A stretch of 64,000 nucleotides of DNA from IMG/VR virus record IMGVR_UViG_3300028048_003120, positions 1,121-65,120 of that record; one strand, given 5' to 3'. Position numbers and translations under genes: made by a program. This document shows positions 24,133 to 41,500 of this stretch, in pieces. The stretch comes from a virus (Duplodnaviria; Caudoviricetes). The notes beneath the pieces were generated by a model. It was given only the letters and a program-made list of their open reading frames with translations. It was not told the DNA's origin and made no database searches. Numbering within the stretch: the stretch's first letter is position 1; each line of letters begins with the position of its first letter.

Positions 24133-24494
24133 TGAAGAAATTCTTCCGAAAGGTCGCGTCGTTCTTCGTCGTGGCCTACGCCAACCACCTTTACCGCGAC
24201 CGCGTGAGGCTGGCCGACAAGTACCACAAGGAGTTGAAGTGGAGGATGTATGTCTGCATCCCCTTCGACGGCAAGACGCTGATCGTGATGGACCGCAAGG
24301 GCTTCCGCAAGGCGAAGGAGTTCCGGCGCATCTACGACCCCACGATGTCCACGACGAAACTCGGCGAGGGCAGTTTCTATTACACCGCAGACCGAGGCGA
24401 AAACGGCGCGCTCTCTCCGAAGGAGAAGGAGCTGCGCCGCCTTGCCTTTGTGCGATATATGCTCCAGCGGGCTAAGCTGCCATCCGAAGCATAG
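24132..24494 (+). CDS. Hypothetical protein (120 aa)
   Basis: Basic protein; its 3' end overlaps the portal 3' end by 23 bp (convergent). Confidence 0.65.
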   Translation: MKKFFRKVASFFVVAYANHLYRDRVRLADKYHKELKWRMYVCIPFDGKTLIVMDRKGFRKAKEFRRIYDPTMSTTKLGEGSFYYTADRGENGALSPKEKELRRLAFVRYMLQRAKLPSEA

Positions 24495-26442
24495 TGTTTG
24501 CGCGTCCGATGGCCTCCATGTCGGCACGGTCGTTGACGCTCTGCTGCACGTTCTGCGGGATTGCACCGATGTTCGTCGGCTGGCCCGTCTGCTCAGCCTG
24601 CTCCTTCGCAGCGCCGATGCTCTGCAGGAGGGAATCAGCAAAGTCGAAGTCGCCGTTCTGCAGGAGCTGCTCGATGGAGATTGCGCCGTTCCGCCAGAAC
24701 TCCAGCAGCAGGTCGTTGCCTGCCATGCGACGCTCCGGCGTGGCCGCACCCTCGCGGATGGAAAGGTCGAACTCGATGTCGCGGGCCTTCTCCGGGTCGT
24801 ATTCCTTCACGCCCGCGTAGTTCCGGCCCGCGATGTTGATGATGCGCTTCTCGTCGTAATACTGCTGGATCATCTTGGTCTTCTTCACGGCAATCTGCTC
24901 CGTGAACACCTGGAACCGTAGCAGCAGCGACGAGAGCGAGGCCGTGGCGTTAGCCGTCTGCTGGGAATAGAGCGCTGCCGAAGTGCCGGCATACGGCTGC
25001 TTGCCCTGCAGGGCGTTGTTCGTCTGCGCGATGTTCTCCATCATGTCCATCATCAGCTTGACCATCTCCACCGTGCCGAGGTTCGCCGCGCTGGAGTATA
25101 TCTGCTGGGGCATGGGAACGCCCGGCTTCGGCTTGTAGAACACGATGCCGTCGTAACTCGACATCTCCTCCGCAAATTCCTCCTTCGTCAGACCTCCCAT
25201 TACATCTTCCGGCACCATGATGACACCCTTCGCGCCCGTTCGCCGCACGAAGTCGTCGAGGATGATAAGGCGGTTGATGTAACGCTGCTGGTCGAGGAAG
25301 TCCCCGGCATACGGGTGAATCTCGCCGTTGACGAAGGGATAGAAACTCACGGTGTACGGATGGCTCTCGTGGTCGAAAGGATTCTCGCCTTCGAGCAGGA
25401 TAGTGCCGTCCGGGGCGAGGAACTGGAAGAACCAATAGTAGTCCTCCACGTATTCGGCCTCGATAAGCGCGATGTCCTCCTTCGCCATGCCCATCGCGAG
25501 ACCTTCCTGGATGCGGCTCTCGTTCTCCAGCTCCACGAGTTCGTGGTAGTCCTCCGATTCGACGCGGTAGAGTTTGCCTTCCAGCGGGTCCCAGCAGCGG
25601 TAGCGCTCCTTCAACTCCTTCGTCCAAATCTCATAAACGCGGCAGAGAGACGGGTCGTTGGGAGTCCAGAAGTTCATGCCGTCCTCACGGTTCCGCTTTC
25701 GGATGTCCTCGCTGACGGGATATGCAGTACCGCCGACGCGGTAGATACTGCGCAGCAGTTCGTGGTCTTGATGACTGTGCGAGAAGCGGTGGTAAACCTC
25801 GTAGAGCGGCATGTCGTGGATTTCGCCGATGATGTAGATGTTCTGCATCAACGGATCGTCCATAGGGCCGTCGAGGAACATGTGCGAAGGAAGCGGGAAC
25901 CGTGACTTGATGTCCCGCTGACCGTCCATGAAGTCCAGGCCCTCGCGCTCGAACACCATACCGCCAATCATGTAGTCCTCGAAGGCGTTGGTAAGCAGCA
26001 GGCGCATGGAGTTCTTCTGCCAGTTGCATTGCAGGGCAATCGACATCATCTCGCCCACCTTCTGCTCGTCGCGGTCACGCGCCGTGGCCACCGGCTCCGT
26101 ATCAGTCTTGGAGTACAAGCCCGTGACGGTGTTCACGTGGCTGCGCATGACATTGTTCACGAGGGGAACGTTGCCCTTGCGCCGGATGTACTCGGCCTCC
26201 GTCGTGGTCACGGTCCTGCCGTTGTGCTTGTACGTGATGCTATCGGACCATTGGTCGCCGTACACGTACCTGCCGATACGCTCGCGCTCCCGCCGTGCAG
26301 GGGCGAAGTTCTCCCAGATGATGGAACTTTTCGTCAGCAGCGGCAGGTTGTTGTTCCGGGTGCCGGTGCGACGGCGGTGTTCCACCGAATCAATCCTCTC
26401 GCGGGGCATGAGCCGCGACTTTGGTATCATTATCCTCGGCAT
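24472..26442 (-). CDS. Portal protein (P22/T7-like podovirus type)
   Basis: 656 aa; YVYGDQW, PLVNNVMRSHVNTVTGLY, LDQQRYINRLII and GKQPYAGTSA patterns typical of podoviral portals. Confidence 0.88.
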   Translation of the reverse strand: MPRIMIPKSRLMPRERIDSVEHRRRTGTRNNNLPLLTKSSIIWENFAPARRERERIGRYVYGDQWSDSITYKHNGRTVTTTEAEYIRRKGNVPLVNNVMRSHVNTVTGLYSKTDTEPVATARDRDEQKVGEMMSIALQCNWQKNSMRLLLTNAFEDYMIGGMVFEREGLDFMDGQRDIKSRFPLPSHMFLDGPMDDPLMQNIYIIGEIHDMPLYEVYHRFSHSHQDHELLRSIYRVGGTAYPVSEDIRKRNREDGMNFWTPNDPSLCRVYEIWTKELKERYRCWDPLEGKLYRVESEDYHELVELENESRIQEGLAMGMAKEDIALIEAEYVEDYYWFFQFLAPDGTILLEGENPFDHESHPYTVSFYPFVNGEIHPYAGDFLDQQRYINRLIILDDFVRRTGAKGVIMVPEDVMGGLTKEEFAEEMSSYDGIVFYKPKPGVPMPQQIYSSAANLGTVEMVKLMMDMMENIAQTNNALQGKQPYAGTSAALYSQQTANATASLSSLLLRFQVFTEQIAVKKTKMIQQYYDEKRIINIAGRNYAGVKEYDPEKARDIEFDLSIREGAATPERRMAGNDLLLEFWRNGAISIEQLLQNGDFDFADSLLQSIGAAKEQAEQTGQPTNIGAIPQNVQQSVNDRADMEAIGRANTMLRMAA

Positions 26443-26459: not shown

Positions 26460-26502
26460 CAATGATAATCAACTCAAATTCCTTTTATTGTCTATCTGCT
26501 CC
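26460..26502 (-). promoter_or_regulatory. Putative late promoter (motif copy 4, degenerate)
   Basis: GGAGCAGATAGACAAT-N19-TATCATTG, upstream of the portal. Confidence 0.5.
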
Positions 26503-29500
26503 TAATCCATGTCGGTCAGACGCTCGACCATAGCGCGCTTCTCGTCAGCAATCCGCTCACGGAGGAAGTTCTGACGGTCCTTGTCGTCGGTATCCTTCAA
26601 CTCGTCCTGCAGCTTCTTCACCCGCTTGTCGGCCTCCTTGAAGAACCGGGCACGCTGGTATGCGTCGGAGGAAGCAATCCTCGCCGCCTTCTCGATGTCG
26701 CCATCGCTGCGGTAGCCACGAGCGCGCTTCTCGGTCACGTCGGCCTCCTGCTTGTAGTGCCAATACATGTCGTTCACGTAGCTGGAGGCGGTACGCTCGT
26801 CGTTCTTTTGGAACAACACGTTCGCCAGCGGTACGTTGCGGAGCTGCCTCATGTCGGAATCCCAAGTCATTTCTACGCTCTTGGCGGTTTCCTCGGCGAA
26901 GGTCAGCAGACCACCGAAGTAACCCTCCAGCAAATGCTCCACAATGGCGGGGTTGATATTCACGGCTCCAGGGCCGTACTGATCGCCTCCCGTCACGTTG
27001 TTGAGGAATTCCGCGGACTTGACAAGAACCTTGCTCGTCCCGGCGTATGCTTTCGTGTAGGCCGGCGCACTCTCATTCCACGGCTGCTTCTTATAGATGG
27101 GCTTGCCCGTGAAGTCGGTGTTGAGCGCGGCCTGCGCCACGGGAGCCACCATATCCGGCACGAGTGAGAGCAGCAGGCCCTCTCCGGGATTCTTGCCCTT
27201 GTTCGTCACGACACCCTCGACGGGGTTCAGCGGCATGATGTCGGCCACCTGCCCGAACACATCCAGCCCGACCTGCCACGGCTTGTGATCCTTCATGCGC
27301 CCGGCCATCGTCATGTAGGCGATGTCGCCGATACCGTAGAAGGCCCGGAGTTCAATGGAGAGCGGGATTGTCAGGTAGAAGCCGCCGCCACCGAGGACGA
27401 GGTTGTTGCGACGCACCCAGTCCGGCAGGTCGGCATACTCATCGTCGTCGCCACCGACGGCGGCGGAGATGATGCCGTTGAGGAACGGAATCATGGCGCC
27501 CAGTATAAGTGTTGATGCTACATTGACATCGAATTTCCTCAAGTTGCCTATTTTTGTGCGTCTGCTCTTTCCCCGGAGGCCGACGAAGTTTTGCAGGCCC
27601 TGCACGCCAGCGTTGTAGAACAAGTATGCAGCGCGGGCGAAGCTGGAGCCGTAGCCCTCGCCGGAACCCTTCTTATTGAAGTTCACGGAGATGTCCTTCG
27701 CGTTCGCCACGGAGGTCTGAATGTCGCGGCCCATCTGACGGGATGTCATGTAGGCCGACAGTCGGCAGATGTCCTCAACGCAGCGGTTCGCGAATCCCAC
27801 GAAGTCCTCAACGGCCCGGCCAGCGTTCTTCACGGTATGCAGTTTCTCGCCCGTCTGGTCGCCGATGATGCGGTTCACCATCTTCTTGTACTCGTCCACA
27901 CGTTTGAGCTGCGTGTACCCGGTCTCGCCGCCGTTCATCATGAACTCCTTGAAAAGACGCTCGGTCTCGGGAAGGTCGTTGTCGTCCACCTCGTCGAACT
28001 CCCCGGCCTTGAACCTCCGCATGAGGTTCCAAATCCGGCCATAGTTGCGCATGAGGTTGCCGCGGAATGCCCGGTTGTAGTCGGAATCCTCCTTGACATC
28101 TATCGAGAACAAGGAATACGTGGTATCGCGGATGAGGTTTCGCAGGACGAACTTCGGGCTGCGCGTCGTGAAGTTCGCGGCCATCCAGCGGTTCGCCTTC
28201 GCCATCTTCGCGAGGAAGTCCTGGCGGTCGGGGTTCGTGAGGCCGTTTATGGCCTGCGCCGCGCGGGGGTTGCCGTTGATGACCAGCACCCAATCCTTGC
28301 CGCCGCTCTTGACGACGACCATGTGTTCCTGATCCTGCTTGTTCAGCAGGCGGTACGGAATGTTCACGCGGCCACGGTTCGGCTTCTTCTTCGAGGCGAG
28401 GCCCTGCTGCTCCAGCGCCTCCATCCTCTGCTGGAAACTGTCGAACGCCTCCTGAATGTCCTCGCGGCTCATGTCGTTGGTAATCTGAGGGACGGCCTGC
28501 GTCCACTCGTCGGCCACGGGGTCGTAGGTGTACCACATGGGCTTGACCGTCACGAGGTCGTTCGGACGGTTGAGGACCATGTTGAGGAACTTCTGCTTGA
28601 CAAGGTTGTTGTTGCCCTGCTGCACGGTACTCTCCCACATGTTGCCGATGGTCGCGAACGGGTCGTCGGCAATCGAGGTACGGCCCTTCGCCGTGCGCAT
28701 GGCGGGCGAGAACGGGCTGCTCTTGTGGTCGAGGTATTCGTAGTGCTGCTCGGCGGTCTCCTCGTCGAAGCCACGCAGCGGCACGTAGAAGTTGAACATG
28801 TCGCGCACGTTCTCATACTCGCTGCGCGTCAGTATGCCGGACTGCCAGCTCTTGTAAAGGGCCTTCTTCGTCGCGTCCTTTACCTTCTGCCACATGGAAG
28901 CGCACTCGGCAGCGGCCCGGCCCTCAATGTCGTCCACGTAGATGCGGGCGCGCTCCTCCGCTTCGTCGAGGTCGATTGCATCTTCCCCGTCCAGAAGCAT
29001 AAGCGAAGTGAGGCCGGAATAGTCGCGGCGCTCGATGGTCTCTCCAGCGGCCTGCTCGTCGCGGTCGTGGAAGACCTCGTTGCGTTCGAGGCCGTGCTTG
29101 GCAATGGCATACTTGATTGCGCCCTCGTAGTCGATGCCAGCCGCAACCATCATGTCGCGGACGGCCTTGATCATCGGGTCGAAGTAGTTCCGGGTGTAGA
29201 ACTCCTTCTCGGCGCTATTGACGCTGGAAAGCTGGTTCTCGGCGGTGTACGCATCCTCGAAGGACTCCAGCGGCTTGCCGGAGGCCCGGACGAGTTCTTC
29301 CTGCAGCACCTTCAAGGCCAGCATACTGTCCTGATGCGATTCGCGGACCTTGTTCCTCCAATTATTGATTCGGAACTCATAAAGACCTTTGAGGTCGCCA
29401 GGTGCGGGCGGGGTAGCCTTGCGGGAAAAGACGGTTACTCCTTCGCCTTCTCCTGCGCTTCCTGCATCTTCCGCGTCTCCTCGAAGTACCCGCACTTCCT

Positions 29501-32500
29501 CTTGCGGAACGGGGACTTTTTCCAGCCCTCGATGATTCCCTCGATAGCCTGCTGCTGCTCTTTCTCCTTCTTCTCGTTCTGTGTCATATCCAATTGCGTT
29601 ATAGTAGTTGGTTATAAGTTCCCTTGTTCGGTCGGGGAGGTCGGGCAGGACGAATCTTGAAAAGCCCTCGCTCATCATGGATTCGGTCAACTGGACGAAC
29701 AGTTCTTCCTTCCTTTCCTTTTCCTCATAGTCCTTCGCGATTTCCCGCTCCATCTCGGCGATATGGTCGGGAGCCTTGCCGCGCATGAACTCGATGAAAC
29801 CATCCAGCGCTTCCGAATCTTTCCAAATCTTGTTCTTGTACAAGTAAGCGTGCAGGTTCTCATGGAAGAACGTGCCCTCATACTCGTCGTAACTTGTATT
29901 CGGATGTGCGAAGATACGAATAATATCGTGTACAAAGTTATATGCGCCGGCCCTTCCAGTCGTATCGCCGTCATCGCTGATGTCAACATACTTCGCCAGG
30001 TGCTGGTAGCGGTCCGTCAAATCCATAGCCACGCGACGGAGGTAGTCCTTGTCGTCCTCTCCTTCCTTCTGCGGGAATCCGCGGCTGAACATCGTATGAC
30101 TCTCGATGTTGATATCCTTGTCGTCGAAGATCACAACGCACTCCCCGTCAAGGCCACCGACATATTTGAGACCGACAAACCCGGCATCGTGCAGGAACTC
30201 GCTCGCCGCTTTCTTCGAGCGGAAGCCGTGGGCAAGTTCCGCATAGGCCCGGTCGCCGCCGATAGGTCCTTTCTCCATCTTGGCGATGAAGTCGTCCAGC
30301 GTGAGGTCGTGGAAAAGCAGTTTGTCGTCCTCCGTGGTCTTCCACGCACCTTCGGGCAGTTTGCGCAGTGCCTCGACGATCTTCGTCCGCATGGGCTTCG
30401 TGACATTCCTATCCTCGTCGAGATAGTTGTCCCCGGTATCGTCCGGGATTTCCACCTCGTAGAAGTTGTGGTCTATGTCGCGGACCTCAAAGTCGTCTTT
30501 GGCAAGGCCCTCGATGAATTCAATCTCCTTGTCGTAATGCTGGTTCATCCAGTAGGTATCCTTCATCTCCTTCCTGCGCTCCTCGGCCTTTTTCAGCATG
30601 TTGAGCATCCGGGCCTTGGCCTCCTCGAAGGGAACATCGTGGTCCCTCATCTCCTGCTTGATGAATTCCACAATCTCATTCGCGTAGTAGGTAGGGCCGC
30701 GCCTTCCCTTGTAGATAACCTTGTCGCGGTCTCCCAGCAGGGAATAGCGCCTTGCGGTCCCTTCCTCGAAAGTGATGTAGGTTCCATAGCCGTGCGCCTG
30801 ATGGCCTTCCCCCTCGCCGATATGGGCGTGGTCGAACTTGTCGAAGCGGGCCGGACTGCCATGATAGGCCCTGCTGAAACGGGTATCGCCCTCGCGCTGC
30901 TGCGGCTCGCGGCCCGCGGCGCGGACCAGGTCGTCCACCTCGTCGTTGGTAAGCACCTTCTTCACGCGCATGGAGCCGGTGATGATCCACGGGTCGGTAT
31001 CGGGATTCGGGTTCGTGCGATAGCGGTAGAAGCCATCTTCGGGGACACGCTTCAAGCCTGCGTAGGAGTGACGGAACCTGCCGCCCTCGGTCATGCCTTC
31101 CGCATCGGCCTCCTGCTGGTAGTCGTTGTCAGCAGCGTATTCCACCTCTGCCCATACGAAATCCTTCGGGAAAAGGTCTCTCTCCCCGGTCGCGGGGTTG
31201 AGGCGGTTGAACTGCTTCGCGTAGGGAATCTCGCCAAGGTGCCAGCCGGGACGGTATGCCAGCGTTCCGCTGCCGCCCTGAGTGCCCTTGCCACCCTGCT
31301 TGACCTGCGGACGGCCCGTCTTGCTCTCGCCGACGATGGGAGCCGCATCCGCATCAAGCCATACACCGACGGGCGTATCCTCGCCGCCGGGGTTCGCGAC
31401 CATAGGCGGGTAGAGTTTGCCGTCCTTCTGGAAGAACACCTTGTAGCCGATGCCCTTCTTTACCGGCTCCGGCTTCGTCCTGCGGCTGAAATGCGTATCT
31501 TCGGTAAGGAAGTCCACGGCCCGGCGGTCGTAGAGTTCCTCCAGCGCTTCGTCCTCGGTCTGCCCGGTCACGGAGGCAGCGGCCCGCGCGCGCTCGATGT
31601 CGCCACGGCTGAAATGGGTGTCGCCGCCTTCCTCGACTTCGACATCATCTTCTTCCGCGTCCTCCAATTCGATGTCGGCCTCCCCGGTCTCAACGCCGGA
31701 ATACTTGGCCTCCTTCTCCGCGAGTTCCTTAATCATCGCCTCGGTGTACTCGGCGACACGCTTCTGCGCCTCGACGAGTTTGTCCTGATCGGCGAAGGGC
31801 TTGCCCTTGCGGGCCTGCATCTTCCCGTTGTCGTCCTTCATGCGGTCGATACGGTTCTGCAGGTCCTCGATGCGCTCCTTCGCGTGCTTCCCGGTCGCGT
31901 ATTCCTCCTTGAACATCGGAACGATGTCGCGCAGACCGTTGATGCCGCCCGGCACGGAAGGAACATCCACGCCCAGTTCGGGGCAGGAGAACGAGATGGT
32001 CGTACTCATCGTCGAGACGAACATGCCGCCCTTGAAGTCCGATTTCTTCGTGACATTGGCTACGACATCGACCTTCACGCCGTCGAAGGAGAACACGTAA
32101 GCCTCGCGGCCATTCTCAAACTGATAGGAATCGCGCCAGCGGTCGATTTTCTCGCGCAGGGGCTTCGATACCTTCTCAGCTATGACCTTGCCTATTTCCT
32201 CGTCAGTGGTCGCGGAAACGCCCTCTATGACGACCTTCTTGACCTTGCCGCCGGGGAACAGTCGCTCCGCGGCCTCGGCGCTTTTCTTGAAGCGCTCGAT
32301 ATGGCCCTCGAACGAGGTAATCTTGCGCTCGTTCTCCTGCAACTGATTGGCGATGTATATCTGGTCGGCCCTGTGCATCTCCTGCTTGTTGCGGAGCTTG
32401 CGCAATTCCCGCTCGGCCTGCGATTTCAGCAGGGCGAACTGACTGCCGGAGAGGACGGCGACGGGATTGTCGAACAATCCTTCTTCCTCCTCCTCCAGCG

Positions 32501-35500
32501 TGCGGTTCTCCATGCCGTTCTTGATGAGCGGCTTGCCGTCCATCACACTGTCGATGAACGCGGCCTTCGTCTTCAGTCGCTGGTATGCGGTCACATCCAG
32601 CGAATCCTCAACGCCGAAGCGCACCACGCGGACGGTCTTGTCCCAGTCCTTATGCACATTCCCTTGCCGCAGGATACGGCCATTGCGCTGCGTGTAGTCC
32701 ATAGGACGGTCCGGCGCATCCATGTGTACGGCCATGTGCAGGCGCTCCTGGATATTCACGCCGGTGCCGAGCAGCTGCGTGGACCCCATGACGACGCGGA
32801 TGTCACCCGAATTGACCTTCGCAAAGACACGCTCCTTCTGATCTGCGCGCATCTCGCTGCGGATAATGGCAATCTTGTCAGCCGGGACACCACGGGCGAC
32901 GAGTTTCTTCTTGATGTCGTCAAAGACATTGAAGCCCTCGCTGCCGTCCGCATCTCTCCTGCGGAAGCGGTCGCAGAATATGACGACCGTGCCGTTGTAG
33001 TCCTTCGTTGCTTCGAGGTCCTCAACGACAATATCGACGGCCTTGTTGGTCTTGCTATTCGGCTCGTCCGGGGCGTTCTGCATGACGAGGCGCGGGTCAA
33101 TGGCGGCGCGCTTGGCAATGCCATACGCCGTGAGCGGGATATGGCTATTGCGGCGCTTCTCCTTGCCCGTCATCTTCTCGAACTTGTCGAGAATCTCGCG
33201 CACCTTGCGCATGATGGCGACGAGGGAAGGAGACTGCTCGAGGTAGATGTCCTGCGCCTTGCCACCCTCCATGTCGGGAATCTTCTCGGAGAGTTTCTTG
33301 CCCTTCGCGGCCTCCGCATCCTTCGCCAGCACCGTATCGGCCACGGATGCCCAGATACGCACCAACTCCGGCAGGTTCACGTAGGCAGAGAAACGGGTGT
33401 TCTCGCGGAACTTGCCGTTGGTGGCGAACTCGAGGCTCTTGGCGATGTTGCCGAAGTTGCGCACGAAGTCGTCGAAGTAGTAGATATGGTTCGCCAGCAT
33501 GACATCATCCGGCATGAGGTAGCGCATGAAGGTCCAGATTTCCGCTGCGGTATTCGAGATGGGCGTGCCCGTCGCGAACACAACGTTCTTCCATCCTGCC
33601 CGGTCGAACACGCTGCGCGTCTTGAGGAACACGCTCGCCGCCTTTTGGCTGACGGAAGGGTCCACACCTTTGATACCCTGCTGGAGCGCCGTGGCGAAGC
33701 CCAGGTGCTTGTATTCGTGCGCCTCGTCGATGAGCAGCGCGTCAATCTCCATCTGGTCGAAGTCCTCGACGGCATCCACCTTTCGGTCGAGCTGCCGCTT
33801 CGCCTTCGCCGCAGCGTTGGCCTTGACCTTCGCGTCGGTCTTCGCGTTGCGCCGTTTCTTGCCGCCGCCGGCGATGTTGCCTTCTTCGAGGTCGCCTTCG
33901 AGGTCTTTCAGTTCCTTCTCCATCCGCTTGATGGCCTGCGAATCCGCGCCAGCGTCCTTCGCCTGCTGGAGAACGTACATCTTCTCGTCAATCCTCGCCT
34001 GAATGAAGGCGCGCTTGCGCTCCTCGCTATCGGGAATCATGTTGAACACCGACTGCGGCACGACAATCATGTCCCAGTCGTTATACTTGATCTTCGCATA
34101 GAAGGCAGCACGGCCCTCCTGCGTCCTGTCTCCCTCGGAGACGGTCAGAATCTTTGCGCGAGGGTAGAGTTTCTTCGCCTCTCCGACGAACTGCCCGACG
34201 GTGGAGTTCTGCACAACGACCATAGGCTTCTTCGCCGTGCCAAGCCTGCGCATCTCCATCGCCGAGGTGATGAGCGTGAAGGTCTTGCCAGAGCCTACCT
34301 CGTGGGCCATCATCAGCGGCTCAGTCGTGGCCCGGATTACGGCCTTCGCCTGGTGCGGGTAGAGCTTTATCTCCATGTTCGCGCCCTCGAAGTGTTCCGG
34401 GATGAACCGCTCGTCAATCTCCTTCGGCACGATGGCGTTGAAAAGGTCGTTGTAGGTGCGGGTGACACGCTTCGCGAGGTCCTCGTCCTTGCTCATCTTA
34501 CCCTTCGCCCATTCGCGGAACTCGTCCTTGATTTCGTCGATGCGCGTCTGCGCGGCCTGCTCTGCCTCTTTATCGACCGTCGTGGTGGTCTCGCCCGTGA
34601 AGCGGTCCTTGTGGGATTCCTTGAACTCGGGGCGAGTATTGTTCATGGCGTGCAGCATCAGTTCGTGGCCCAAGACCTGCTTGTCCACAATCTTGCCCTT
34701 CACGCCGGCAGAACGGTTGGAATCGTTGTACTCGTTGAGTTTCCAGCCTCTCCTGATGAACTGCCACGTGCCGCCGATGGGCTTGAACTCGAAATCATCG
34801 GAAAGCCCGTATTTCTCCTTCGCGAAGTCGGAATAGATTCCCGGCTCCAGCCAGTCGGAACCCAGCGAGAACTCGATTAGGTGCGCAGGAATGTCGAGAG
34901 GGATTACCTTCTCCAGCGCCTTGATGTTGTTGTCGTACCGCCCGTCCTCGTTGTGGCTGCGGGCATACGCCAGCTTCTCGCGGACATTGCCGGAGAGATA
35001 TTCGTAACTCACTTCGAGGCTCCCGGACATCGGGTCTTCGAAAGCGAGGCCGGAATCAAGAATCTCGCCGCGCACGACATCTTCGCCCTGCCCGACGGCC
35101 TTCGCGATATACGGAAGGTCGATACGACCGAACTGGTTCATGCTGACGATCACGCCGTCCTTCGCATCCTTCGGCTTCGGAGTGGCCTTGAAGCCTACCA
35201 TACGCTTCGAGAACACATCCGTCTTCTTCGTGGTGACGATGCGCTTCCCGTGCTGGTCCAGCGATTCCGTGTAGTCCTCAACGGCAGCGACGGAAGGGAA
35301 GTCCACATCGTTGCGCAGGAAGGAAAGCGAGGTATTCTTGTTCAGCGGGCCATACTTGCCGACAAAGCCGTCGTAAGCCTCGTTCAGAGCCTCCAGGAGC
35401 GGAGCCAGGCCCTCGTCGGATTCATTGTTGGTTTGATACTCCAGCACCGCGTCAATGGCAGATTTGAGGGCGTTGTAGTCCTTCAAGACCTGCTCTTTCG

Positions 35501-38500
35501 TCTGCCCCTTGACCTTGTTGTTGTTCACGCCGAGAGGAACGGCCTTACCAAGACTGTTGATGCAGACCTCGCCCTTACTGTTGACGACGAGCTGCCCTTC
35601 CTTGACCTTGTCGGCCACGGCTTCGGGTTCCGCTGCTGCTGCGGTCTCGTCGGCGGCTTGCGGCGCGGCCTCCAGCGATTCGCGGAGGTCGGACAGTTTC
35701 TTGACCCAGCGGCCCAGCATCTTCTTCTGATCCTTCCCGTCCACGGGGAAAAGCCCGACGGAGGTAGGCCGGAAGGTCTCGCCGCGGTCGAAGTTGAACA
35801 ACATCTCGCCAGCCATGTTCTCCGGGTGTTCGACGAAGTAGGTGTCGTACTCGATCGAGACGGGCGTTTCGGTCTGCTCGTACTGACCGGTCCTACGGTT
35901 GAACTTCCCTTCCTCCTTGTACACATCGCGCCGCGTGACGGTGGTCCCTATCATGTCGGCAGCGCCGGGCATGGCCTTGCCGCCGACGCGCTTGCGGACG
36001 ATGATGATGTCGGAAGTGACGGGCGTGCCGCCGAAGGTCTGGTTGTTGAGGCGGAAAGCGCCGACGAAGTCCGCGCCGCCCTCCGTGGTCACCCACTGAC
36101 GGAGAGCGCGGCTCTTGTCAAGCGTGCCGTTGGAAGTGATGAAGATACCGATGCCGCCCTCGCGGAGCTTGCGGACATTCTTCGCGATGCAGAAGTCATG
36201 AATATTCCCGAACTTGCGGGACAAATCCTTCTCCACCTCATCGACGACATGCAGACCCGTGACGAACGGAACGTTGGTAATGGCGAGATCGACACTGTTG
36301 TTGGGTATCTTCACATCCTCGAAGCCCCTGATCTGCACATCTGCATCCGGGTATAGCAGTTTGAGGATGTTGCCCGTGACGGAATCAATCTCCACCGCCG
36401 TGATGTCGCTGGCCTCGCTGACGGCCTTCGGCATGTTCGCAAGGATATTGCCCACGCCGGCAGACCCTTCGAGGATTCTGCCACCCGTGAAGCCGAGATT
36501 CTTCGCAGCGTCCCAAAGGGAGTCGATGATTTCGACCGGGGTGTAGTAGCTGGAGTTGATGGAGAGTTCCGCAGATGCGATTTCCTCGTCGGTCATCGCG
36601 TCATGCAGCATGCGCTGGACGCTGGAATGCGGTGCTTCGTTGAAGTAGGAGCCGAGGCCACCCCAGCCGGAGAACTGTCGCAGTACCTCCATGTCCGCCT
36701 TCGACGCTTTCTTGCCGGAATCGACAAGCTCGCGCATCTTCTTTATTGCGGCGATGTTGGCCTTGAACCGTTCAATAGGGGTCGTGGGAGCGTAGGATAC
36801 GCCACGCTCGCCACGGTTGTTGTTGAGGTTCTTCCTTACGGAATATCGAGGTCGAGCGGGCAGAGTCCGACCATCCTCAACGCCCTTTCCTTCTCCTCCT
36901 CGGTCAGTTCCTCCACGTTCTTGCCCAGCTGCTTCGCCAGTTTCTCCCGACCCTCCTGGATTATCTTGCTCGGGTCGATTGTCGTGAATGCCATCGTCTT
37001 GTGTATTTGATGAGTTGTTTTCTTCTATTTCTGCGAACAAGCCGCCGAGCGGTGCAGAACTTTCCTGCGAAGGTACTGCTTTTTCAACATCTTTCCTAAC
37101 CCTCTTGATTCTTTCCTTCGCCTTGTCAGCCTCCTTCTCGACCTGCGCTTCCTCAACTGCCGCCTGCGCAGCCTCCGCAATGTCGGGGGCCGCTTCTCCG
37201 AGGGTGTTCACGTCGATTCCGCGCACATCGTCGTAGGAATCCATCTCGCCCTCGTACTGCTCCATGCCGGGCAGGTCGCGGGCACCGTTGTAGAACGCCT
37301 TGAGGTATGGCTTGATCGCATCCCCAAGGTCGGCAATCATGGCCTTCGCATACGCAACGAACTTGCGAGCGCCCTTCTCGATATGGTACACGGCCATCTG
37401 CGCGCCGATGGAGAAGATTTCCGGGTCGATACCCATGTTCATCTGGCCTTTCAGCTTCTCCTTCATGCGGCGCACGAGGTCAGCATATTGCTCGTCGGTC
37501 ACGAGTTTGTTGCCGGAAGGATTCACGGGGCGCTCCTCCTTCGGCTGCTCGACCGCCGCGGCAGCGGCTTCACGGGCAGCAGCGGACGGACCCTCGAACT
37601 TGTCGATGCTGGACCACTCCACGACCTCGTAGATGACGGGAGCAAGGCCGGTATCAAGTACGGGCCTATGGTCGCCCCAATCCTCGAAGTCGTGAATCTT
37701 GGCCAGCACGGTCTTTCCGCTATAGGAAGTGTACATGACCTTCTCGCCGAGGCGATAGCCGTTCACGCCCTCGCCGGCCTTCTGCTTGTCGAAGTTGTAG
37801 AGATGAATCTTGCGGTCCAGCTCGCTCTTGTCGGAGTCGGAAAGGAGTTCATACAGTCCGTTGTTCTCCAAAATGCCCTTCAGGTCCTCCGGGGTGTCTG
37901 CGGTAACCTCATAGTTGCCGTCGTAGATTTCCTGCCCGTTGGCGAGAACCTGATAGCGTTCCAGGCGAGAATGTCCGCTGCGGTGGGCCGTGAGTTCATA
38001 CCTCCACTTCGGCTCCTCCTCCTTCGTCTCCGGCTGCATCTCGATCACCGAGACTTCGCCGGAGGTCTGGAGGTCTTCAACGGACAACGGTCGTGCATCC
38101 TGCACGCTCTGCTTGCTTTCAAGCGCGTCGGCAAGGCGCTGGGCGCTTTCCATGTCACGCATCATGAACCCACCGTCCTCACGAGAATACCAGCCGCGGC
38201 TCTCCTTCGCAATGCCGCTGGCCGTGGCCTTCTCGTCCTTCGAGAGTTCACGGCCCGGCCTCACGAGGAACATGTCGAGCGAGCGGCCCTTTTTCGTGGT
38301 ATATTTGGCCGGGGTAATGGTCGCCTTCGTCGCGGGGGCCTCGGTCTCTGTTTCCGCAGCCGGTGCCTGCTCCTGCTCTGCCATGCGCTGCATGGCGAGA
38401 CGCTTGTACGATTCGCGGAGGATAACCGAGATGTCCTTGTCGGTCATCTCCGGCTGGTAGCCGCGCTTCTCGAAGATGGAGCGGAAGAATTCTGCTATCT

Positions 38501-41500
38501 TGTGCCAGATACCCTCGCCGCTCTTGTAATCGACGGTCTCGGCGAGTTCCGCGATATACTCATCGGCGGCTGCTCTCTGCCGTTTCTCCTCCGCAAGATG
38601 CTGCACCTTGCCGAGAAGCTCCGACCGTCTCTTTTCGGGGATGATCTCCCACACGCGGTCGCACAGTTCGTCGAAGCCTTCCTGCCCGAGCAGGTCGCGC
38701 ACGCCCTTGTGCCCGACAAGCTCGTGGAACACCTTGCGTTCCGCTTCCGAGAGGGAACCGATGTTCGGGGCGTAGATATGGACCTCGCCCGTCTTGCCGT
38801 CATACCAGCCCGTGATGGTGTCTCCATCCAGCAGGGCGCGGTAGGCGGCTGCGTCGTTCACATCGTTGGGGCTTTCGTGGACGATGATAGGCGTATGCAG
38901 GGCCTGCGACATGGAATCAATCTTCTTACGAAGCTGGCCATAGCGAGGCAGGCGCTCCGGCTTCTGTTCGTTTTCGGCGGGTTTTTGTTCGATTTCGGCA
39001 GGGTTTTCTTCCAGCAGGCCATATTGCCCGGCGAGCTGCTGGTAGTATTCCACCAGCGGAAGCCCGGCCTTCTCCGCGGCCTCCGTCGCATCCTTGATGG
39101 CCTTCTTTGCCGGGGCGCTGACCTTCTTATTCGGCGAGACCGAAGCCTTCTGATTGTTGCGGTACACCTCGTCGGCGCGTTCGCTCTCGGCCTGCCAAGC
39201 GTCGTACAGTTCGGAGAAGCGCTGCATCTCCTCGTCGGTGATGTGGTCTGCGAGTTCGGGGTTGCCGTCGGACTGCTCGATGATGCCGCGCACCTTGTCA
39301 CGCAGGGACGGCTCGCCCTGTGCGGCATCTTCTGGAACACCCTCCTTCCGTACATCGCCCTCGGTCTTGACGGTCTTGTACTCGGAGAAGGGTTTCGTCT
39401 TGCGGTGCGAGGATTCCACCCATTTCTTGAACTCGTCGCGGCTGACCTCGGCGATGGCCCCCAGCCCGGTCCAGCCTTCCTCGTAGTTGGAGAGGTAGGC
39501 GGCACGGGCCGCTTCCATGTCGGGGAAGCCGTACATGACCTTATGCTCGTCGAAGGAGCCGTCCGGCTTGACCTGATCCACGACGAACACGTTGCCCTCC
39601 TCCGGGTTGTCGGAGAGGAACACGTCGATATGGTCGCCGTCCACGCCTTCGGTGCCACGGATATAGCCGTAGGTATTGTTCATAACCTGCGACCACTCGT
39701 GGCCCTGAGCGTCAGTACCGCTGCGGACGCTGCCCTTCGGCTGCTCTATGGTAATGTCGTATCCGTCGAGCTTGATATGTCCTTTCTTGTAGTTGCCCGC
39801 TTCCTTCTGCGCCTCGGTCGGTTCGGTATCCACTTCGGCCTCGGCAGCGGCAATTTCTTGCTGCTTTTCGGAAAGTTCTGCGGGTGTTTCGGAAATTTCA
39901 TGGGCATTTTGGGCAATTTGAGCGGCCTCGATTGCTTCCTGCTCCCGACGGGCCAGCTCCTCCGCCATAGCAGCGCGGTTGTTTTTGATAAAGTTCTTTA
40001 CATCGCCCCACGACTTGACCTGCGAAAGCACGTTGAGGATGGAATCGCGGATGTCCATGTCGTCGAGTTGGGCCGTGAGGCCGGTATCGTCGCTCTCCTT
40101 GACAATCTCGGCGAGGCGCGACACCGACAGTCCCCCGTCCTTGACGAAGCCTCCGACAAACCCCTGCAGGTCGGAATCGGAATAGCCCGTCTCGCGAAGG
40201 AAATCCTCCTTGTCAAGCTGGCCCTTGTAGGCGTTGAGGTACTGCGAAACGAGTTCATCGACGGACTGCGGCTCCATTTCCCTGGACTCGCGCAGCCTCT
40301 GACGAGCCTCAACGCTTTCAGCGGCCTTGTTGATGGATTCGATGCGCTTCTGGACGGTCTTGATCTGGTCGCTGAGTTCATCGCGCTTGTCGAAGTCCGG
40401 CTCCGCATCGTATTTCTTCTGCAGGGCATCGAGTTGTCTCTGCTGGCGGGCAATCTCGCCCTTCAGATATCCCTGCGCGCTCTTGCCGCCGTCATCGCGG
40501 CGCTTGGTCTCCCACTCAGCCCAGGATTCGGGGTCGCCCTCAAAGAGTTTCGACTGGTCAACCCTTCCGTCCTCCTTCATCGGCATGGGACGGCCTCGGA
40601 AATCGTACTCCGTAGCTTGTTGCGCGGCTTGTGGCCGCGTTTCTACCTCCGGCTGGACTTCCTGCTGCCCGGCTGCCTGCGGCTGCTCTACGGGCGTTTC
40701 CTGCCCTTCCTGCGGCTGCGGCTCGACGGCCTGCGCAGGCTGGACGGTTCCGGCGCGTAGGCTGACGAAATCGGCGATGGGAATCTGATGCACGCGACCG
40801 ATGGAGTCGCCCAGTTGCACATCGTCGTCGAAGCGGACGACCACGTTGCCGTCGGCGGTCACGTGGGTTGCGGTCCCCATAACGGTTGCGCCTCCGATGT
40901 TGAACGGCTCCTCCTCGCCCGTGAGCGAATCGGCGATCTCCTGCTTCGTCGGGGTCTCGATTTCGCGGGCGAGCTGCCGCTGGTATGCGTCCTCGATCTG
41001 ACGCTTGGCAGTATTGAACAGTTCTCCGGCAGGCGCAGAAGTGAAGGACTGAACCTCGCGAGGGGAAATCATCCTTACCTTGCCGTCCGGCATGGTGACA
41101 TAGAGTTTGTCGCTGGAGTTGCGGCGGTCCACGGAGCCGTCCTCGGTCTTGGCGAGCCGTCCGGCCTTCATCCCGACCTTCGTGCCGTCCTTCAGCGTGA
41201 TGTCGTAGTAGATGCCGTCTGCGGTCTTGCTGCGGATGTCCTGCTCGGCCCGGTCGATGTCGGCCTGCATCTCCTCGTTGATACTGTCGTTCACGCCGAC
41301 GATGGCGGCACGCGCCTGCGTATAGCGGTCGAGTATGGGCTTCAACTCCGGCTGCATCGCCTCAATCATTCCGGCATAAGCGGAATCCTCGTCGATGGCA
41401 TGAATCTCGTCATCGGAGATACCGGCACGGGCAATCTCGGCCAGCGCCGTGTCATATTCGACCTTCGCGGCACGCTTGGCCTCCGGGTCCGTCAGGGATA

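Follow-up and report, generated by a model that had tools for sequence, protein, structure and literature searches.

In phage lambda, the spanin gene Rz contains a second gene, Rz1, in its +1 frame, and the proteins encoded by the two interact; Rz1, a lipoprotein, is secreted and serves in lysis. The cysteine-switch prosegments of matrix metalloproteinases carry the motif PRCGxPD. Few effectors of phages and conjugative elements are as large or as common as polyvalent proteins. Their MPTase domains have been related to the catalytic domain of anthrax lethal factor, and autoproteolytic processing of the polyprotein has been proposed (PMC5512222). Overprinting in small phages and viruses, such as phiX174 E in D, has been reviewed (PMC8227390, PMC3494269). 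Here we describe an open reading frame (ORF) of 50 amino acids (aa) at 29435..29587, overprinted in the +1 frame on a linker of a giant polyvalent protein gene. The gene lies in a 64,000-nucleotide stretch (‘the window’) that is part of a 65-kb IMG/VR provirus record, from a phage of the ruminant gut. We consider it reasonably likely that this ORF is a real overprinted gene, with a helical product that binds the adjacent peptidase domain and may latch it. The features concerned are:

26502..43388, minus strand: enveloping gene of a 5,628-aa polyvalent protein, from the ORF list, with LPD14, InPase, SNF2-type helicase and LPD38 found by Pfam
29583..29948, minus strand: HExxH zincin-like domain, aa 4481-4602, ending in conserved I-G-Y-D
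29850..29864, minus strand: FFHENLH motif within the HExxH domain
29703..29705, minus strand: invariant Glu82 of the domain (aa 4562), from a nine-lineage alignment
29588..29617, minus strand: AT-rich leader of the nested ORF, GC 0.30 against 0.60 for the gene
29435..29587, minus strand: nested +1-frame ORF, 50 aa and TAA, with its ATG derived from the main-frame Tyr-Asp codons TAT-GAC
29421..29435, minus strand: junction motif T-V-F-S-R in the main frame, beginning at the nested ORF stop; one of five x-T-x-F-S-R in the giant protein

The closest precedent is Rz/Rz1, in which likewise a small gene is contained entirely within a larger phage gene and is read in its +1 frame; binding of the products is predicted here from a model. 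Unlike in that pair, the host gene encodes a virion-associated polyvalent protein of 5,628 aa, the nested product has neither a signal peptide nor a membrane segment, and its predicted partner is the catalytic domain encoded just upstream rather than the overlapped stretch. As in the cysteine switch, the HExxH helix of a zinc peptidase is the predicted site of a short Cys-Gly segment, and a role in latency would be plausible. Unlike an in-frame N-terminal prodomain, however, the segment here would belong to a separate polypeptide read from another frame, and the cysteine is present in 8 of 14 lineages. An enzyme tightly linked to a small predicted binder also resembles toxin-antitoxin and effector-immunity pairs, but a separate regulated operon is lacking at this locus, and in the two libraries searched, Pfam and PHROGs, the peptide matched no defence or toxin-antitoxin family model. 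With phiX174-type overprints it shares an alternative-frame ORF in a coding gene, one compositionally biased frame and constrained synonymous sites in the host gene. It differs from them in that the atypical codons and the disordered-looking product belong to the enveloping frame, the overlap does not extend beyond an inter-domain linker, and the nested gene moves with a domain cassette between giant proteins. Like the MPTases described previously (PMC5512222), the peptidase domain combines an HExxH helix and a downstream Glu inside a phage polyvalent protein; that paper describes no alternative-frame ORF, and the present clade is matched by no current Pfam model.

Frame and codon usage of the nested ORF

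The nested ORF lies exactly where a preliminary description of the sequence had placed it: the ATG at 29587 opens a 50-aa peptide in the +1 frame of the 26502..43388 ORF. Its TAA (29437-29435, minus strand) overlaps the main-frame codons GTA-ACC within G-V-T-V-F-S-R, and thus abuts the T-V-F-S-R junction as had been claimed. Cys32 of the peptide (TGC, 29492..29494) is located within a K-C-G-Y-F motif. The same description had reported codons ending in G or C in the nested frame and an A-rich leader in front of it, and both hold. GC at nested-frame codon positions 1/2/3 is 0.50/0.30/0.88, and the 30 nucleotides 5' of the ATG have a GC of 0.30, compared with a gene mean of 0.60, which places them in the lowest 0.2% of giant-gene windows. 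Five of the last six main-frame codons of this leader end in A or T.

When GC at each codon position was followed along the 16.9 kb of the gene in a sliding scan, only two extended stretches were found in which the main-frame signal at third positions (GC3) is lost. These coincide with the ORF at 29435..29587 and with a second nested ORF that had been flagged at 36836..36994, and in both the phase shifts to the +1 frame. The nested-ORF windows have the lowest main-frame GC3 of the whole gene (0.30, compared with 0.79 ± 0.10), and the frequency of A at main-frame third positions (A3) is about 0.5 in them, compared with 0.09 in the gene. Comparison windows of the giant gene that are equally rich in Glu, Gly, Arg, Ala and Asp have a GC3 of 0.74-0.84, so the anomaly does not stem from amino-acid composition. 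The frame-specific codon bias, which the preliminary description had put forward as a point to be checked, is thus far beyond that of the rest of the gene.

Conservation and constraint across lineages

DNA from 14 lineages carrying the HExxH domain was obtained via the neighbouring portal gene, giant proteins of at most 5,000 aa, and scans of IMG/VR and of genomes. In the window, the portal gene is:

24472..26442: portal gene, directly downstream of the giant gene, identified by a P22_portal match on homologs of this neighbouring gene

The peptidase domain recurs in many giant proteins, where it always ends in [IL]-G-Y-[DE] and is followed by a linker rich in Gly, Glu and Arg. Among the lineages, domain identity falls to ~26-30% and the GC of the locus ranges from 0.38 to 0.60. 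The domain is positioned anywhere from aa 1921 to 4600 in proteins of 3201-5628 aa, with at least five different downstream contexts. A +1 ORF of 41-89 codons starts from the same ATG (Tyr TAT plus the next G) in all 14 lineages; this ATG falls within G-Y-[DE], except for D-Y-G in L032. The ORF spans the linker, and its stop codon falls where the next conserved segment begins or close to that point. The preliminary description had singled out homologs that keep the domain and lack the ORF as the case that would speak against a gene; the ORF is present in every lineage (14/14) that keeps the domain.

As a null model, the main-frame protein of each lineage was held fixed and synonymous codons were resampled from the usage of that gene. 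The probability (P) of an ATG with a frame open to the observed length was then 0.13-0.45 per lineage, giving a joint P of ~1e-8 over 13 lineages if these are independent. TAT makes up 0.30-0.49 of the Tyr codons in the GC3-rich genes, in which TAC is commoner, yet the ATG is kept in 14/14. The leader is also AT-rich in five other lineages (GC 0.23-0.27, within the lowest 0.06-0.7% of windows per gene). This fits a start region of the Bacteroidota type, though the composition is partly forced by conserved Asn, Tyr and Ile. In each of the lineages, main-frame third positions of the linker are poor in GC (0.15-0.44) and rich in A.

Differences between L009 and L004 at main-frame positions 1/2/3 number 35/27/68 in the domain and 20/17/14 in the linker; at position 3 this corresponds to 14/51 in the linker vs 68/109 in the domain. 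For the window and L005, the position-3 differences are 17/44 in the linker vs 75/108 in the domain. A neutral spacer would diverge at least as much as the domain, and these two best-aligned pairs therefore indicate that position 3 of the linker is under constraint. Close strains revealed three changes within the ORF. Main-frame position 3 is affected by none of these, and two leave the +1 peptide, but not the main-frame protein, unaltered. Very close relatives (93-98% DNA identity) are mosaics containing long stretches without any difference, and for this reason the lack of any ORF difference between the window and L002 is uninformative.

The +1 peptides themselves were compared with a permutation null, in which the main-frame protein and the codon composition of the linker were fixed and synonymous codons were permuted within the linker. 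The real peptides are more alike across lineages than the permuted ones (Z 5.1 over all permutations), also when only permutations that stay open are considered and the shared start is removed (Z 3.1, Fisher p 0.004). A single Cys, located in a C-G-[WYFTG] motif, is found in 8/14 of the peptides. Judged from codon usage and conservation, 29435..29587 is quite probably a real translated gene.

Two further observations concern the linker in other lineages. In L028:72-197, on a metagenome contig of 1.7 kb that belongs to the L011 lineage, a single change from TTA to TAA puts a main-frame stop within the linker. The nested ORF is intact, and the same change reads as Tyr to Asn in the nested frame; the stop may stem from a sequencing error, mark a pseudogene or reflect a form that is split in nature. 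A tandem second I-G-Y-[DE] unit follows directly after the first nested stop in L011 (8677-8800), L021, L028 and L032. This unit has its own +1 ATG and ORF (e.g. MTDEQKKPQESPKPKRTLWQIWEEF...), and the copy is truncated in L021.

Predicted partner and competing explanations

In an alignment of nine lineages, H29, E30, H33 and E82 of the peptidase domain are invariant. The AlphaFold2 (AF2) model of the domain has a predicted local distance difference test score (pLDDT) of 90.9 and places HExxH and E82 on helices 20-38 and 76-94, respectively; the boundaries used for modelling probably cut off an N-terminal strand and helix. No Pfam model matches this domain clade, and a Foldseek search with the domain model found no solved structure. 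With VIA-align, the best match was the catalytic domain of anthrax lethal factor (Z 5.2, root-mean-square deviation 4.0, 97 aligned), which is weak for a helical model, followed by ArdC, PPEP-2/3, PprI and Spartan at low scores (Z 3.4-4.5). These weak structural matches, obtained with a model, agree with the zincin assignment made previously (PMC5512222).

The nested peptide was modelled as a helix-loop-helix (pLDDT 73). Its complex with the domain scored 0.76, compared with 0.02 for the best control; in a benchmark, the complex-score mark was reached by 58/80 solved complexes and by 2/110 mismatched pairs. The complex runs had a contact agreement of at least 88% and a partner pLDDT of at least 79, and structure searches for the domain revealed no similar solved structure that the complex model could have memorised. 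In the modelled interface, peptide residues 10-22 lie on domain helices around residues 55-66 and 85-100, and residues 25-28 and 31-35 belong to the interface along with domain residues 25-37 (including H29, E30 and H33) and E82, in a metal-free model. Provided that the gene is real, we expect, from this model, that the peptide binds the adjacent peptidase domain.

For the peptide, Pfam, PHROGs and the ESM Atlas contained no match. Scans of IMG/VR and GTDB with the window sequence returned little or nothing, a scan of 401 genomes of one order gave 2 matches, and the phage GenBank collection gave none. A profile of nine +1 peptides searched against 1.84 billion proteins recovered only called copies of the same nested ORFs and one spurious repeat protein. 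An origin by compensated frameshift or from an in-frame ancestor was also considered and rejected: when the +1 peptide was compared by BLAST with the main frames of 120 giant homologs, only low-complexity noise was returned. On account of these BLAST and profile searches, no in-frame or stand-alone version of the peptide is known. A stand-alone peptidase with a separate small gene was found only as two fragments, from contigs shorter than 1 kb. Among the papers that literature searches on nested genes in polyvalent proteins or phages brought up, none describes such an ORF.

We propose that a separately initiated gene has been overprinted in the +1 frame on the linker after the HExxH domain. 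The main frame would read this linker as a Gly/Glu/Arg/Ala spacer that tolerates the demands of the +1 frame. Ribosomes would start at the TAT-GAC-derived ATG after an AT-rich leader of the Bacteroidota style and produce a 50-aa helix-loop-helix peptide. According to the model, its amphipathic helix (residues 10-22) would pack on the helical part of the domain, and the K-C-G-Y-F segment (residues 31-35) would lie along the HExxH helix. More speculatively, the peptide may be a prosegment supplied in trans that holds the peptidase latent inside the cell that makes it; packaging or ejection of the polyvalent protein would end this latency, and the enzyme would cut at the x-T-x-F-S-R junctions. 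Cys32 may act as a zinc ligand in the manner of a cysteine switch. Such an inhibitory latch is suggested by the modelled interface and is put forward tentatively. The preliminary description had pictured cassettes of an enzyme and a nested partner, similar to toxin-immunity pairs. The cassette part gains some support from the ORF following the domain in at least five downstream contexts and from the complex model; the toxin-immunity part is unsupported.

Several results weigh against this reading, and some of them are also what could be expected if the ORF were an untranslated by-product of a purine-rich, T-poor, low-complexity linker selected in the main frame only, with the ATG as a side effect of Tyr-Asp. 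Given the main-frame protein, P that the +1 frame stays open is 0.17-0.92 under synonymous resampling (0.86 for the window), and P of the ATG is 0.30-0.89, the ATG being automatic from the conserved main-frame Tyr-Asp/Glu whenever Tyr is TAT. The giant genes contain many +1 ORFs. The length of the nested ORF is not by itself above chance and is uninformative, because the giant gene has 19 +1-frame ATG-ORFs of at least 50 aa, of which it is the shortest. At some loci, much of the linker is free of stops in the +2 frame as well. For more diverged pairs, whose alignment is uncertain, the position-3 effect is smaller and falls short of significance. Similarity of the +1 peptides is weak in half of the lineages: position by position it is modest and significant in only ~5 lineages, those with the C-G motif, and the permutation test gave no signal in L008, L010, L011, L023, L032 and L034. 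In pairwise peptide z-scores the +1 frame outscored the main frame in only 19/36 lineage pairs, and a helical hydrophobic-moment test against codon-permuted nulls gave a weak signal (Z 2.0), which was negative in the case of the window. The called copies of nested ORFs in public protein sets sit on ~1-kb contig fragments and add nothing, and the binding is a model prediction. A by-product would nevertheless leave unexplained why third positions are A-rich here against a GC3 of 0.79, unlike in other acidic or Gly-rich linkers, and why the same phase is found in 14/14 lineages. It would likewise not account for linker synonymous sites that are more conserved than those of the folded domain, or for a specific complex score with near-zero controls; we consider it unlikely.

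If ribosomes instead slipped by +1 at G-Y-D, a truncated polyvalent protein would result in which the +1 peptide forms a covalent C-terminal extension of the peptidase, ending at the TAA before T-V-F-S-R. The +1 frame does open at the end of the domain and close at the next junction, and the peptide is modelled like an integral part of the helical bundle of the domain. However, +1 stops 1-9 codons 5' of the ATG in most lineages would confine the shift to GGA-TAT-GA, and this site has no shared slippery run, rare or hungry codon, stop codon or other stimulator. The ATG is moreover retained in all lineages, even where TAC is the commoner Tyr codon, and the AT-rich leader resembles a start site, making a frameshift isoform distinctly improbable. 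Still less probable is an element acting on RNA or translation speed, in which the A-ending codons would make ribosomes pause or keep the RNA unstructured over this tract, and no second protein would be made. The linker codons are indeed rare in GC-rich lineages, but in AT-rich lineages (gene GC3 0.28-0.40), in which A-ending codons are common, the linker has an excess of A at position 3 all the same. For this reason, a rare-codon cluster or pause was rejected as the cause of the A3 bias; an RNA element would also leave the ORF, the ATG and the conserved C-G motif unexplained. A separately initiated, overprinted gene is thus the explanation that we prefer.

A second nested ORF, setting of the giant gene and implications

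The second nested ORF had been described as sharing the frame offset of the first and being of similar size, and this was found to be correct:

36836..36994, minus strand: second nested +1 ORF, 52 aa, in another linker; the other low-GC3 stretch of the gene

In the distant homolog L011 (1806-2003), the ATG of the second ORF is found at the homologous main-frame position with flanks that are 40% identical, and main-frame GC3 falls locally to 0.30 over it. The peptides of the window and L011 share A-K-x-L-G-K-x-V-[DE]-E-L-T-E-E-E in the +1 frame. The second ORF precedes a methylase-helicase module and does not follow a peptidase. The earlier suggestion that two cases point to a principle is thus given some support by conservation of the second ORF. 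In the AT-rich giant genes of L012, L013 and L010, long +1 ATG-ORFs are more numerous than the stop density suggests (L012 has 8 of at least 56 codons), and other linkers of these genes may contain further nested ORFs.

The giant protein fits the phage polyvalent protein class sensu Iyer et al. 2017 (PMC5512222). The motif x-T-[HRMV]-F-S-R recurs between its modules, at main-frame aa 3926, 3967, 4171, 4434 and 4654 of the 26502..43388 gene, in the variants DTHFSR (twice), DTRFSR, HTMFSR and VTVFSR; these junctions are candidate autoprocessing sites of the peptidase domains. Just 3' of the T-V-F-S-R junction motif, at 29355-29415 (minus strand), the window has a dense patch of differences and small indels relative to all close relatives (ATPPAPGDLKGLYEFRINNWRNK in the window vs APLPDDLKGRYEARVTDVANK in close relatives), which looks like a strain-specific local replacement. 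Opposite the giant gene, the plus strand contains long antisense ORFs at 27591-29660, 29763-34880, 34881-36356 and 37383-40760 (689, 1705, 491 and 1125 aa, respectively), which are probably a by-product of the codon bias of the giant gene. In 17 studies dated 2017-2025, gut metagenomes of bovine and goat origin contained near-identical variants of the phage (window 29100-30100). RNA runs contained at most 0.10 of the sampled words of the stretch, and the runs above a tenth were DNA or of unrecorded type (assembled contigs).

If the proposed reading is correct, the nested peptide would be a concrete regulator of the peptidase domains of polyvalent proteins. It would add a class of genes missed by gene callers in thousands of gut phage genomes, and it would show that overprinting can be linked to a mobile domain cassette instead of to an entire gene. 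A wider view, which we regard as speculative and rather doubtful at present, is that the linkers of polyvalent proteins are systematically dual-coding. Their cassettes would then carry trans-acting +1 micro-proteins, here a cysteine-switch-like peptidase latch and a second, unrelated one before a methylase-helicase module, which are shuffled together with their domains. Were this the case, polyvalent proteins would contain a hidden layer of genes regulating the effector polyproteins delivered with the virion.

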